Assembly: GCA_045578665.1 (NCBI GenBank)
Contig: JAZNKR010000181.1
Span: forward strand, 1-55,468
DNA length: 55,468 nucleotides
Source of the DNA: Bacteroidaceae bacterium
GTDB taxonomy: Bacteria > Bacteroidota > Bacteroidia > Bacteroidales > Bacteroidaceae
Direction of reading: 5' to 3'
In this document: positions 37,444 through 42,135 of the stretch, one piece after another
Layout: every line of letters begins with the position of its first letter
Position numbering within the stretch: the stretch's first letter is position 1
Notes under the pieces: generated by a model
Database searches by the model: none
What the model was told of the DNA's origin: nothing
Seen by the model: only the letters and a program-made list of their open reading frames with translations
Made by a program: the position numbers and the translations under genes

Positions 37444-40400
37444 TTATAGGTTCTTGAGCAGGCAAAGGTATGCATCCTCGAGGTTCTCCTCTACCCTCTC
37501 TGCATTCTCGCACGGTTTCTCGCGCGAGATGTAACGGACTCTTATCTTGTCACCGTTCATCATGTTGTTAACAATAAGTTTCTCGTCGAGTGTATCGAAT
37601 TTTTCGGGTTCGATATCGAACACCCACACTTTGTTCTCGGCAAACTTTGTCATATCGAGCGGGTCGCCATAGTATTTGAGTTCTCCGCGATTGATGACTG
37701 CAACCTGGTTACATGAGCTTGCGATGTCCTCGATGATATGCGTAGAGAATATCACAATGCGGTCACGGCTGAGCTCCACAAGCAGGTTGCGGAAGCGTAT
37801 ACGTTCGCGGGGGTCGAGTCCGGCTGTAGGCTCGTCGACAACAAGTATCCGCGGCAGATGCAACAGTATGAGGGCAATACCTATACGCTGCTTCATACCA
37901 CCCGAGAAGGAGCCTATCTTATGGTCCTTGCGTTCGTACATGTGAACAGCCTTGAGTACATATTCGAGACGCTCCTTGCGCACGATAGGATCGGTGATAC
38001 CCTTGAGCATCGCCTGATAGTCGAGGAATTCCCATGAGGTCATGCTCTCGTACATGCCGAACTCCTGGGGAAGGAATCCGATGAGGCTCTGCAACTCTTC
38101 GCGATACTCGTTTGTATTGAGACCGTTTATCCACACTGTACCGTAGCTCTGTTCGAGGATACCGGTGATGATGCGCATCATAGTAGACTTGCCGGCACCG
38201 TTGGGACCGAGAAGTCCGAACATACCTGTCTTTATCTTGAACGAGACACCTCTGAGTGCCATAAAGGGTGTGCGGCGCTTACCGATGATGGGAATACTCT
38301 TGATGGCTATGAAGAGGCTTCTTCTTGTCTCGGCAAATCTACCGGTGAGACGCTCCACATTTATTCTATGTGCATAGAGATAGTCGGATGTAACCTTCAC
38401 AGCAATGCCCAATGCCCACAAGAGACCGATGACTATTGTTGCCGGAATATTGTCTATCCCGTCGGAGATTATCATCAGGGTTATCAAGGGGAGCAGCAAT
38501 GACACGACCTTGTGCACAAGGTTCACAACACCCTTGTAACGGGTGGTATTGTATTTTAGGTATTCTCTCACCTTCTTCCACAGGTCGTAGAAGCCTGCAC
38601 AGACTGCGAAGGACAACATTATTATCCAGAACTTGTTTTCGAGATAACATGTTACCATGTAGAGTAGGAACAGATATATCACCACCTGCCACAGTACAGA
38701 GACAAAGTCCTTGAGGTGGTGGAACTCGCTGTGCAACCCCAATCGTTTGCGCAGTTTTATTCCGCTCTCCCACTGACGGGTGAACTTGTTGGACCAATCG
38801 TATATCTTTACAAGGTTGCGTATCTCTATCACAATAGGCTCGTTCTCGTCAATAATCTTCTTGTCTGCCATTCGCATCGATGTCTTGATGAAGTATGTGC
38901 AGCCGGGAATGAGCACTGTCAATGCCATTACATAGAGCAGTTGCATGAAGACACCGCTTACATAGAAATAGATGTAGAAGACTCCGAAGAGATAAATCAC
39001 CAGATGCAGGAGGTGCATGGGACGGCTGAGCGAACGGTACCACTTGAGAATATTCTCCAGCGAGAGGTAGACTGTGGGAATGAGTATCAATGTCAGCAGT
39101 GCCGAGAATGTGAGACCACCGATGACCGTCACCGCAAAAGGTGCTCCGATTGCCCCGGCATAGTCCGCATCGCCCATAGCCATAGGCAACATGGCGATTA
39201 CCGTGGTTGCTGTGGTGATAAGTATGGGACGCAGACGGGAATATCCGCTGGTGATGAGTGCCCTGTTGCGGTTATATCCTCTTTTGCGCAAGATGTTCGA
39301 GTAGTCTATGAGGATGATACCGTTGTTCACCACCACTCCCAAAAGTATGAGGAAACCTGTCATGGTGTTGGCATTCATCAGGCTGTTGCCGGTGATGAAG
39401 AGTCCGAGCAGTGAACCTATTGCAGCCAAGGGTATAGTGAAGAGCAGCACAAAGGGAGTGGAGACCGACTCGAAGACAGATGCCAATATCATGAATATGA
39501 GTATCAGCGATGCTATAATCAGGAAGTTGAACTCGCTGAGCGACTCCTCGGTGCGCTGCGTCTCTATGGCTATGCCACTGGGGACGTTGTAGCTTGCTAT
39601 AAGCTGGTCTATCTCGTCACGGTAGCCGTTGAGCACATCTTTGGGCAGATCTTCACTCTGTGTTATACCGTAGAAGATTGTTATCTCGCGGTCGCGGTTG
39701 ACACGGCGTATGCTCGAAATGTCGCGTGTGTATTTTATCGATGCCAACTGCTGCAATTCGTGCAGACCGCCGTTGGCATCGGGAATCATCACCCGACGAA
39801 GGTCTTCAACTGTTTTCTGAATCTTCTTCTGCTTCTTCTCCTCCTCTTCGCTCAGGTCCTCCTTGATGACTATAGCAAATTCGTCGTTATTCAGTTTGAG
39901 ATAGCTGTTAGTCGTCATCTCCTTGTTGAGCGAACTGAGTCCGTTTGTGATGTTCTGCCTTGTTATATTGTATGATGCCAGCAGGATGGGGTCGAAGACA
40001 AGGTGTATCTCGTTGCGGCGACCCGGGTTTGTTGCCCAGTTCCATGCCACAAAATCCATCTCGCGCAGATTGTAGCGTATGTTGTCGGCAATGATGTCCA
40101 TCATATCGAAGTCGGAGCCCTTGATTACAATGCGTTCGCTGTTGTCGCCCACACCAAGCACCCTCATGAAGCGGTTCATGGTGGATGCTGCACTGCTCTG
40201 TCCGCTGTTGGAAGAGCCGGTAGATATGCGTATATCGACGTTGGGCAGCTGCATCAGTTTGTTCAGTTCCTCGACAATTGTGGAAATCTTTCTGCCGCTG
40301 TTCTTGTAGTAGTCGTCCTTCAAGACCAATGTTATGGATGCAGCATCCTCCTGTATGCGGCAGATGACCTCCTTCTTCTCGGGGAAGCTGTCGAGTTTCT

Positions 40401-42135
40401 CTTCGAGGATGGATACCATGCGGTCCGAGTATTCCAATGTGCTCGACGAAGGCATGGTCAGGGTCATGTTCACTCTGTCGGCATTGACCGGTTTGCTGCT
40501 GTCGGTGTTCGTCGAAAGGACAATCATCCACATGGCAATAAGTACCACCACGCAGCCTGTTATGCAGATTGCGGGCTTGCGGAGGCTGGTCTTCAGAAGC
40601 ACGGTGTATATCTGCAAGGGACGCTGGTTGATGGAGAGTTTCTCGTGGAATACACTCTTTCCCTTGTTATTCTTCAGCATCACATAGGTAGACATGGGGA
40701 TGAACAGCAATGCCACTGTGAGCGAGAATAGCAACGTCGCTATGATGGAGATGCCTATGTGCTCTCCTATGAGACGTATGAACACCTCCTCGGAAAAGAG
40801 GAAGGGCAAAAAGACGGTGATGGTTGTGAGCGTAGATGCAAGGATAGACTTCCACACCTCGCGCGTTCCCTGCGTAACTGCCTGTTCGGCACTCTTTCCG
40901 TGTGTAAAGAGACGGTATATATTCTCGAGAACGACTATACTGTTGTCGAGCAACATACCTATTGCAAGAGCCATACCTACAAGGGTGAGGCTGTTGATGG
41001 ATATGTTGTAGTAGTAGAAGAGGTTGAATGCCGCCATTATGGATATGGGCATCGAGAGCGCGATGAAGAACACAAGATGTATGTTGCGCAGGAAGAACCA
41101 TAGCACCACTACAGCAAGCAAGGCACCGCTTATACCCAACTCCACAATCTGGTCGATGTTCTTCTCTATCTCATCGGCAGAATTGGACTGAATGACAAGC
41201 TCTATTTCCTGCGAAAGGAACTCCCGGTTGAGTGCTTCGAGACGCTTTTTCGTCCTGTCCGAAAGTTCCAGGATATTTACCTGCGCGTCGTTGACGAGGG
41301 CTACGGATATCGCCTCCATTCCATTCACGCGGCTCAGCGTGGTTTCGTCCTTGAGGTCGAAGAATATTTCGGCTACGTCCTTAAGGTATATAGGTCCGGG
41401 AGCCACTATCACATTCTCTATCTCGGAGATGTGGTCGTAGTTGGCATCGAGATGGACATAGTAGCGCAAATCGGGGGCATTTATATAGCCGAGGAATGTG
41501 CGTTCCTGGTTGTACTGTCCCAAGATGTCCCTTATGCGCGATGGGGTAAGTTTCAGCGCAGAAAGGGCTTCTTCGTTGAAGCGTATCTCTATGGCCTTTT
41601 CGCGTCCGCCATATACATTCACAGCCGCAACACCGTCGATATTCTCGAGTTGCGGTTTTATATCCTTGTCGACAAGCGCACGCAATCTGTCAACTCCTCC
41701 GGTGCCACGCACCTGCAGGGTCATGAAGTTGTTGTTCACTCCATTGATGTTTGCCCTCTCTATGTTCACTGTGAAGCCATCGGGCAATGAGGGAAGGACA
41801 CTGTTCACCCTCTCCTGCAATTTAAGGGTGGTATATTTAAGATTCATCCCTTTCTTGAAGTTGACGCGAATCTCGCCCTGCCTGTTCCTTGCGGTAGCCT
41901 CCATGTTCTCCACTCCTTCGATGGTGCTGATGACACCCTCGAGCGGAATGACAGCCTGCGACTCCATGTATGCCGGTGTTACGTCCCTGTCAGATGATAT
42001 GTGTATGAACAGCATCGGCAACTCTGCATTGGGCAGAATCTCTACCTTCAGTTGTTTATAGGAGACATATCCCAAGAGGGAGATGGCTATAAACAGCATA
42101 CATATGGTTATCTTGCGTTTTATTATGAAATTCAT
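37444..42135 (-). CDS. RND (AcrB-like) efflux permease fused to extra TM helices and a C-terminal ABC ATP-binding domain
   Basis: 1,563-aa uninterrupted ORF. The RND part is aa 1-~1035. The ABC NBD motifs are [29 protein letters not shown] and STHI at aa 1310-1467. Confidence 0.85.
   Translation of the reverse strand: [1563 protein letters not shown]

Follow-up and report, generated by a model that had tools for sequence, protein, structure and literature searches.

Efflux in Gram-negative bacteria relies mainly on two engines, resistance-nodulation-division (RND) permeases and ATP-binding cassette (ABC) transporters, which are treated as separate systems with separate energy sources. A stretch of 55,468 nt from a Bacteroidaceae bacterium (GenBank assembly GCA_045578665.1, contig JAZNKR010000181.1; "the window" in the following means this whole stretch) harbors an open reading frame (ORF) on the reverse strand in which an RND permease is followed by an ABC nucleotide-binding domain (NBD). 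The locus raises the question of whether such an RND-ABC fusion is a real protein and, if so, what an ABC ATPase could do on an RND pump.

Domain content of the fusion ORF

A preliminary description, made from the sequence alone, had read the locus as one uninterrupted ORF with two modules and had proposed a domain scan, with ACR_tran and ABC_tran expected in one protein. The ORF indeed runs from an ATG through 1,563 codons to a TAA stop without internal stops, and Pfam detected both domains in the same polypeptide far above the curated cut-offs, namely ACR_tran at aa 2–1026 (profile positions 3–1020/1021, E = 3e-155, 518.9 bits vs. a cut-off of 28) and ABC_tran at aa 1294–1438 (E = 4e-26, 92.7 bits vs. 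25). The base composition of the gene is flat along its length. A full RND permease had rightly been recognized in the N-terminal part, while the two blocks of six transmembrane (TM) helices assigned to it were not recovered: by hydropathy, TM1 lies at about aa 10–28, TM2–6 at 335–480, TM7 at 525–540, and TM8–12 at 870–1025, i.e., in a 1+5 and 1+5 arrangement with the large periplasmic loops behind TM1 and TM7. The two hydrophobic helices noticed behind the RND part reappeared in hydropathy and in an AlphaFold2 (AF2) model as a hairpin at aa 1038–1091.

Regarding the ATPase motifs, Walker A had been located correctly apart from its end, as it runs over aa 1310–1318 (nt 38182–38208) and not only to residue 1317. 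The other positions were exact, with the Q-loop LPQE at aa 1355–1358, the signature FSGGMKQR at 1410–1417, Walker B at 1430–1441, and the H-loop STHI at 1464–1467. The C-terminal extension had been described as common to a free ABC ATPase encoded in the same window (51519–52412), and the alignment of both proteins agreed with this, revealing 43% identity over 271 aa that reached the C-terminus (E = 3e-81).

Conservation of the fusion

A scan of one genome per GTDB species, with the linker and NBD as query, resulted in 35 matching loci. The whole fusion gene was present in 31 of these, the other four being cut by contig ends, and in 30 of the 31 it displayed an open frame of 1,554–1,616 aa from the first ATG. 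Intact copies were found in the isolates Parabacteroides massiliensis SN4, Bacteroides sp. 224, Draconibacterium mangrovi, Prolixibacter bellariivorans ATCC BAA-1284, Maribellus maritimus, Marivirga sericea DSM 4125, and Marivirga tractuosa (complete chromosome), as well as in metagenome-assembled genomes (MAGs) of Calditrichaceae and Latescibacterota. Thus, the fusion is spread over Bacteroidales, Marinilabiliales, Cytophagales, Calditrichaceae, and Latescibacterota, i.e., at least three phyla, and the best relatives of the window belong to the Bacteroidales. Among the 30 full-length orthologs, the median pairwise identity was highest in the NBD (68%), compared with 50% in the RND module and 34% in the linker; both modules are under strong purifying selection.

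Very long chimeric ORFs are sometimes artefactual, and an error of assembly or sequencing, or a pseudogene that arose when the stop codon between two genes was lost, would be one explanation of such a protein. The intact frame in nearly all of the independent genomes holding the whole gene, cultured isolates among them, speaks against it, as the preliminary description had anticipated when it argued against a mis-assembly or frameshift, and so does the selection acting on both modules. The only broken copy among the whole-gene loci (L026) has fragmented neighbors as well: in this assembly and in that of L001, the fusion gene and the genes for an unfused RND permease (RND1) and an outer-membrane factor (OMF) are chopped into several ORFs. 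Furthermore, no conserved internal Met exists at the junction, where the RND part and linker align without gaps among homologs. The fusion is thus a genuine single polypeptide, an assembly or frameshift artefact is excluded, and the chance left to any artefact or lost-stop explanation is negligible. Separate translation of the NBD was considered too and rejected, as the candidate start codons Met1086 and Met1088 are not conserved in homologs. As a side observation, L001 and L026 illustrate how frameshifts in assemblies yield many "partial" fusion proteins in databases.

A protein search with the C-terminal 537 residues (RND end, linker, and NBD) revealed thousands of matches, named sources being Bacteroidales, Prolixibacteraceae, Draconibacterium, and Tannerella. 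The best 120 were mostly contig-end fragments, and those matches extending far enough upstream all carried ACR_tran and ABC_tran. Since no match above 940 aa was among those listed, although full-length genes exist, the counts of full-length fusions given here were taken from the genome loci.

A split NBD with additional membrane helices

The fused NBD possesses all catalytic motifs, i.e., Walker A, Q-loop, signature, Walker B with the catalytic Glu, D-loop, H-loop, and the A-loop aromatic residue. The key residues of these motifs, including the A-loop Tyr, are identical in 30 of 30 orthologs and in 72 database homologs, K1110 and Y1112 being invariant in both sets, and variation within the motifs of the 30 orthologs is limited to four peripheral positions. 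Since the NBD is the best-conserved part of the protein and its catalytic key residues are identical throughout the orthologs, the fused ATPase is evidently functional, as far as this can be predicted from conservation. Its top matches in NCBIfam were GldA, DrrA, and RbbA, all under the equivalog cut-offs, and among solved structures ABCA4 and ABCA1. By sequence, it groups with the DrrA/GldA/ABCA class, which pairs with ABC-2 membrane domains.

The NBD had been thought to begin at about aa 1100 as one block. Only strand beta1 with the A-loop Tyr lies there (aa 1103–1112), while beta2 and the remainder of the domain begin at aa 1291, so that the fused NBD is not a contiguous soluble fold. That the two strands have been parted by an insertion is concluded from the paralogous free ATPase, in which they are contiguous and which has 5 residues at the position where the fusion has 178 aa.

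An AF2 model of aa 1027–1563, built with the 72 homologs (pLDDT 82.6, pTM 0.62), displayed two long helices at aa 1038–1058 and 1062–1091 (model residues 12–32 and 36–65), followed by strand beta1 (model residues 77–86). In the model, the insertion starts with a basic amphipathic helix (aa 1117–1131) and continues with four helices (aa 1141–1164, 1168–1196, 1201–1227, and 1230–1255), a short helix, and a basic linker, after which a normal NBD with a beta-rich C-terminal domain follows (strands at model residues 477–510, helix at 526–534). Altogether, the six extra TM helices pair up into three hairpins. Their periplasmic turns consist of 2–3 uncharged residues (VSG, LEN, and DN), and the cytoplasmic segments are rich in Lys and Arg; the topology is thus as self-consistent as had been suggested from the helix count.

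Foldseek analysis of this C-terminal model matched the NBD part alone (TM_1403, NosF, ABCA3/4/7, LptB, and others), and the 273-column match to TM_1403 (4yer) spans most of the target chain and is long enough to enter the C-terminal extension. The possibility that the six extra helices represent a degenerate ABC-2 membrane domain was rejected, since hhalign against the family of the small permease encoded downstream of the fusion gave a probability of 0.3% and Foldseek detected the NBD only. When the 266-aa linker was searched with phmmer against 1.84 billion representative proteins, 85 clusters were obtained; the complete ones were all 1,550–1,585 aa long and carried the linker at about aa 1025–1299, while the others were shorter and mostly plain fragments. 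This search revealed neither an unfused linker-NBD nor a homolog of the 178-aa insertion or the six-helix module outside the fusion family.

These results bear on a functional reading in which the fusion serves co-expression, stoichiometric assembly, or membrane anchoring only and the two transporters work independently on unrelated substrates. Fusions of operon neighbors can be selectively neutral, as this reading would have it. Against it, the fusion, the split NBD architecture, and the gene order have been kept over at least three phyla, while linker identity among the orthologs drops to as little as 16%, and the linker-NBD is never found unfused among the representative proteins searched. 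Such strict retention argues for a functional constraint on the linkage, and we consider a fusion devoid of any mechanistic role to be improbable.

The gene cluster and the small downstream permease

The fusion gene is embedded in a cluster of transport genes (Table 1), whose order was fixed in the 34 related loci compared, where the contig allows: M1-like permease, OMF, periplasmic adaptor (MFP), RND1, fusion, and a small membrane protein, here termed DOWN. RND1 immediately precedes the fusion in each of the 29 loci whose upstream sequence is long enough, start and stop codons overlapping in several of them, and DOWN follows the fusion in every locus with downstream sequence; both junctions often overlap or nearly touch. 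OMF, MFP, and RND1 are always co-located with the fusion, their ORFs overlapping or nearly touching, and the 3' end of the M1-like permease gene is found upstream of OMF in nearly all related loci.

Table 1. Features of the fusion gene and its cluster in the window (nucleotide positions of the window; residues refer to the fusion protein unless stated otherwise).
Feature	Position	Strand	Basis
RND-ABC fusion ORF, 1,563 aa + stop	37444..42135	-	ATG start, TAA stop, 0 internal stops
RND permease module, aa 1-1030, 12 TM helices, two large periplasmic loops	39046..42135	-	Pfam, hydropathy, MdtB 9lyq_B closest solved relative
First extra TM hairpin, aa 1038-1091, two helices, 3-residue periplasmic turn	38863..39024	-	AF2, hydropathy, charge distribution
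NBD strand beta1 with A-loop Tyr1112, aa 1103-1112	38800..38829	-	match to free ATPase N-terminus, conservation, AF2 strand
178-aa insertion in NBD beta1-beta2 hairpin, aa 1113-1290	38266..38799	-	alignment, AF2, charge pattern
NBD core, aa 1291-1500, Walker A to H-loop	37636..38265	-	Pfam ABC_tran, motif conservation, Foldseek
C-terminal beta-rich NBD extension, aa 1501-1563	37447..37635	-	common to free ATPase; AF2 strands
DOWN, small membrane protein, 236 aa, predicted ABC-2/type V permease	36719..37429	-	follows fusion, AF2/Foldseek, Pfam matches of orthologs
RND1, unfused paralogous RND, 1,036 aa	42164..45274	-	Pfam ACR_tran, E = 2e-222; 26% identical to RND part of fusion
MFP, periplasmic adaptor, 352 aa	45297..46355	-	Pfam HlyD_D23, HlyD_3; conserved position
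OMF, outer-membrane factor, 508 aa	46398..47924	-	Pfam OEP; conserved position
M1-like ABC-2 permease, 1,114 aa	48102..51446	-	Pfam; sequence inspected by eye
Free ABC ATPase, 297 aa, paralog of fused NBD, contiguous beta1-beta2	51519..52412	-	Pfam, alignment
Hairpin, perfect 15-bp stem, 4-nt loop	36610..36643		sequence

The start codon of DOWN is the ATG at 37429, 14 nt past the TAA of the fusion, by which the overlap of the originally listed ORF (36719–37513) was corrected. DOWN belongs to a family of about 3,800 database proteins, nearly all of which are named "hypothetical protein", and has no Pfam match itself, while its orthologs weakly match ABC2_membrane_3 (best E = 4.9e-06), ABC2_membrane_4, and ABC2_membrane_2. 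Its AF2 model (pLDDT 84.5, pTM 0.82) was matched by Foldseek to the membrane domains of PmtCD, ABCG2, ABCG5/8, NosY, ABCG25, ABCH, and ABCA1 with TM-scores of 0.43–0.62. Based on the matches of its orthologs and on those of the modeled fold, DOWN is read as a type V (ABC-2) permease; its family has a conserved loop, DxRxLEILFGIP. Pfam detected neither FtsX nor MacB_PCD in the fusion or in DOWN. Given its position and class, DOWN probably provides the membrane domain for the fused ATPase.

At the other end of the cluster, the M1-like protein combines an ABC-2-like membrane domain with a large extracytoplasmic region and a C-terminal Golvesin_C domain. The extracytoplasmic region revealed weak similarity to only the C-terminal part of an M1-peptidase domain, and inspection by eye detected neither a HEXXH nor a GXMEN motif. 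The free ATPase stands at the head of the cluster in the window and in L082 and L083, two close relatives; its placement could be checked in these three loci, as the flanks available for the others are too short to reach it. A metagenome scan with the M1-like permease returned two close relatives only. Free ATPases of this type (about 290 aa, 40–46% identical) occur across many phyla, none of them fused to an RND permease in the loci concerned and only one, in the distant locus L055, with an RND gene nearby. In two distant genomes, those of Hymenobacter caeli and an Acidoferrales MAG, the gene behind the free ATPase encodes an M1-like permease of about 1,200 aa.

Hence, the operon encodes two ABC-2-type permeases and two ABC-2-class ATPases, and their pairing has to be considered. 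They might form one heterodimeric ABC-2 machine, in which the fused NBD joins the free ATPase and DOWN joins the ABC-2 domain of the M1-like protein, anchored to a heterotrimeric RND pump with one fusion subunit. This arrangement would resolve the mismatch between trimeric RND pumps and dimeric NBDs with one NBD per trimer, and it fits with the M1-like gene directly upstream of OMF in nearly all related loci, with the free ATPase adjoining that gene in the window and its two close relatives, and with the whole-length similarity of the two NBDs including their C-terminal domains, both having canonical Walker A, Walker B/D-loop, and H-loop motifs. On the other hand, the free ATPase and M1-like permease also occur alone in distant genomes without the fusion (L055 and L078), which suggests that they are a self-sufficient module; the two permeases of the operon share no detectable sequence similarity; and the free ATPase beside the cluster could be verified only in the three loci named. 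We therefore regard a mixed machine as quite unlikely. With the free ATPase adjoining the M1-like permease, and the pair also standing alone elsewhere, the fused NBD would be left for DOWN.

Downstream of the cluster, a hairpin lies between the end of the operon (stop at 36719) and a convergent RidA-family gene (35933–36310), and it is probably a bidirectional terminator at which the operon ends. A search of the whole window against Rfam revealed no family at gathering score and hence no regulatory-RNA hint of the substrate.

The RND module and its energy source

Among solved structures, the RND module matched MdtB (9lyq_B) best. In NCBIfam, the best model was RND_permease_2 with 460.5 bits vs. 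a cut-off of 1250, and every other model was also below its cut-off, the subfamilies missed including MdtB, MdtC, and CusA/CzcA. Residues are numbered here after AcrB, using AcrB segments as anchors. The equivalents of AcrB D407, R971, and T978 are kept in the fusion, and owing to this conservation its RND part looks functional. Asn replaces D408 and K940, two residues that AcrB requires for proton coupling, in the fusion (LLDNSIVV and VVNNGIIL), in RND1, and in essentially all orthologs, with Ser or Thr at the D408 position in a few fusion orthologs. The fusion therefore lacks the complete AcrB-type proton relay made up of D407, D408, K940, R971, and T978.

At first sight, this might indicate that the RND pump is driven or gated by ATP. 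The NBDs would then act via the hairpin and the four-helix insertion on the TM domain of the RND module, replacing or gating the proton relay, with DOWN as an accessory. Only about 60 residues, embedded in the membrane, covalently connect TM12 to the NBD, the extra helices are confined to the fusion family and to the fused context, both RND proteins of the cluster lack the equivalents of D408 and K940, and the ATPase ArsA, which turns the secondary carrier ArsB into a primary pump, provides a general precedent. But D408N and K940N are also present in RND1, which is not fused, and the unrelated RND protein of L055 is also without K940, so that the replacement is a trait of the clade and not specific to the fusion. 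Asn at these positions speaks neither for nor against ATP drive, and the idea that the fused RND part lost its relay and had it replaced by ATP is not supported in this form. Furthermore, an ABC-2 permease without an ATPase gene of its own, the ordinary partner for this class of NBD, always follows the fusion; the threefold symmetry of an RND pump stands against the twofold symmetry of an NBD dimer; and we know of no ABC NBD that couples to a non-ABC membrane fold. Taken together, RND transport powered or gated by the fused ATPase, with DOWN in a side role, seems rather doubtful.

A proposed two-step relay

Since the fused NBD belongs to a class that pairs with ABC-2 domains and an ABC-2 permease is encoded next to it in a conserved operon, an ATPase powering an ABC-2 domain of its own is more likely than one driving the RND module. 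As the simplest model we therefore favor, with a probability of roughly 0.55, a two-step efflux relay in which an ATP-driven ABC-2 exporter is tethered to a tripartite, possibly heteromeric RND pump. The fused ATPase would dimerize and power DOWN, and the resulting ATP-driven exporter or extractor would remove an amphipathic substrate from the cytoplasm or from the inner leaflet of the membrane. The covalent tether and the six extra helices would hold this exporter against the RND pump, whereupon RND1 and the RND part of the fusion (RND2), presumably still driven by ions, would capture the substrate in the periplasm and, together with the adaptor and outer-membrane channel of the operon, expel it across the outer membrane. 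The outcome would be a hard-wired relay from ABC exporter to RND pump.

Several precedents exist for the parts of this scheme. ABC-2 exporters can work with MFP adaptors, as in E. coli YbhGFSR and YhiI-RbbA-YhhJ, and single-component inner-membrane pumps are known to act in sequence with tripartite RND pumps. RND pumps are trimers and ABC NBDs work as dimers; MdtB2C demonstrates that two RND paralogs can form a 2:1 heterotrimer. By analogy, we infer that an (RND1)1(RND2-NBD)2 heterotrimer would provide exactly two NBDs. While the anatomy of the fusion, its conservation, its catalytic motifs, and the predicted ABC-2 fold of DOWN are observations, the pairing of NBD and DOWN, the passing on of the substrate, the stoichiometry, and ion drive of the RND part are inferences.

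Several points weigh against the relay. The contact between the NBD and DOWN is putative, and the Foldseek E-values behind the permease fold of DOWN are weak (best 0.018), although each of the eight top matches is a type V ABC membrane domain. An RND trimer and an NBD dimer differ in stoichiometry. With Asn at the D408 and K940 positions in both RND paralogs, their coupling to the proton motive force is an assumption. The six extra TM helices have no detectable relative and could just as well link the NBD to the membrane domain of the RND module.

The preliminary description had spoken of two engines in one polypeptide. This holds for the anatomy of the protein, while the evidence does not yet extend to a single dual-energized transporter. 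That the ATPase drives or gates the RND module via the six-helix module, which would make it the first primary-active or dual-energized RND pump, or in a weaker form that the protein is the core of an obligate supercomplex with a fixed 2:1 heterotrimer channeling substrates from ABC to RND, is in our view unlikely.

Other features of the window

Apart from the fusion cluster, the window carries a MacAB-type efflux cluster on the forward strand (9359–17885), comprising an OMF, an HlyD-family adaptor, an ABC ATPase, and two permeases (about 810 aa) that both combine FtsX with MacB_PCD domains. Divergent from the fusion operon, an ORF of 428 aa without a Pfam match is located at 52710–53996 on the forward strand. 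A gene for a YhcG-type PDDEXK nuclease (DUF1016; 18077–19231, reverse strand) and one for an AAA_14/DUF4143 ATPase (28143–29417, forward strand) each lie in a local patch of low GC content (about 0.41) and are surrounded by housekeeping genes (such as SerRS, ProRS, enolase, and Maf); each may represent a small insertion.

The region from 29400 to 31500 is largely non-coding and low in GC (about 0.39–0.41). It harbors three direct copies (90% identity) of an element of about 163 nt at 29615–29777, 30401–30563, and 30985–31147, two of which extend 70 nt further. A 34-nt inverted repeat (29644–29677/29811–29844) spans the first unit, and an ORF of 127 aa (30020–30403) is flanked by the first two copies. 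Neither Rfam nor a tRNA search resulted in a match in this region.

Comparison with known systems

None of the systems compared here fuses an RND permease to an NBD or carries a membrane insertion in its NBD. In MdtABC-TolC of E. coli, as in the cluster of this study, tandem paralogous RND genes share one adaptor, MdtB is the best solved match of the RND module, and MdtB/MuxB and MdtC are among its top NCBIfam matches. The fused RND part and RND1 are only 26% identical, however; the fusion scores 275 vs. a cut-off of 1584 bits for MdtB and 272 vs. 1774 bits for MdtC, the fusion cluster has Asn for D408 and K940, and to our knowledge no Mdt protein carries an ATPase. The operons of the YbhGFSR and YhiI-RbbA-YhhJ systems also encode an NBD of the ABC-2 class together with a small ABC-2 permease and an HlyD-family adaptor, and RbbA is among the better NCBIfam matches of the fused NBD (E = 4.5e-41), although the NBD reaches 141 bits vs. 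a cut-off of 1050. Their NBDs differ in being contiguous and either free or fused to their own ABC-2 permease, never to an RND protein.

While the membrane domains of PmtCD, NosDFY, ABCG, and ABCA proteins are matched by the model of DOWN, and the NBDs of NosF, ABCA3, ABCA4, ABCA7, and TM_1403 (4yer) match the fused NBD, permease identity amounts to 12–15%, and the PmtCD, NosDFY, ABCG, and ABCA systems possess neither an NBD membrane insertion nor an RND module. In MacAB-TolC, an ATPase, an adaptor, and a TolC-like channel also cooperate across both membranes, but MacB has an FtsX-type membrane domain with a periplasmic domain and an N-terminal NBD, in contrast to the fusion, which lacks both FtsX and MacB_PCD. 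Finally, an ATPase cooperates with a membrane protein of the ion-gradient type in ArsAB and in SecDF with SecYEG-SecA, SecDF being a member of the RND superfamily; unlike in the fusion, the partners are separate polypeptides and the ATPases are not ABC-type.

The preliminary description knew of no characterized protein of this kind, and none was found in the full-text literature searched or in a comprehensive review of tripartite pumps from 2021. The fusion sequences are already public under generic names.

Implications

The RND-ABC fusion would be categorically new only if ATP acts on the RND cycle. Irrespective of this, it raises structural questions, namely how a threefold RND pump is combined with a twofold ATPase, which role the four-helix insertion in the NBD plays, and which ion relay serves RND pumps without D408 and K940. 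As the family occurs in Bacteroidota of the gut and the sea, among them cultured isolates that are potentially tractable, experiments are feasible. In the "Rosetta stone" sense, the conserved natural fusion argues strongly that ABC-2 exporters and tripartite RND pumps can act together as a single physical unit. If true, the proposed relay would turn the long-discussed two-step efflux into a concrete model open to testing, in which the substrate reaches the periplasm or outer leaflet via an inner-membrane pump and is then expelled by an RND pump.

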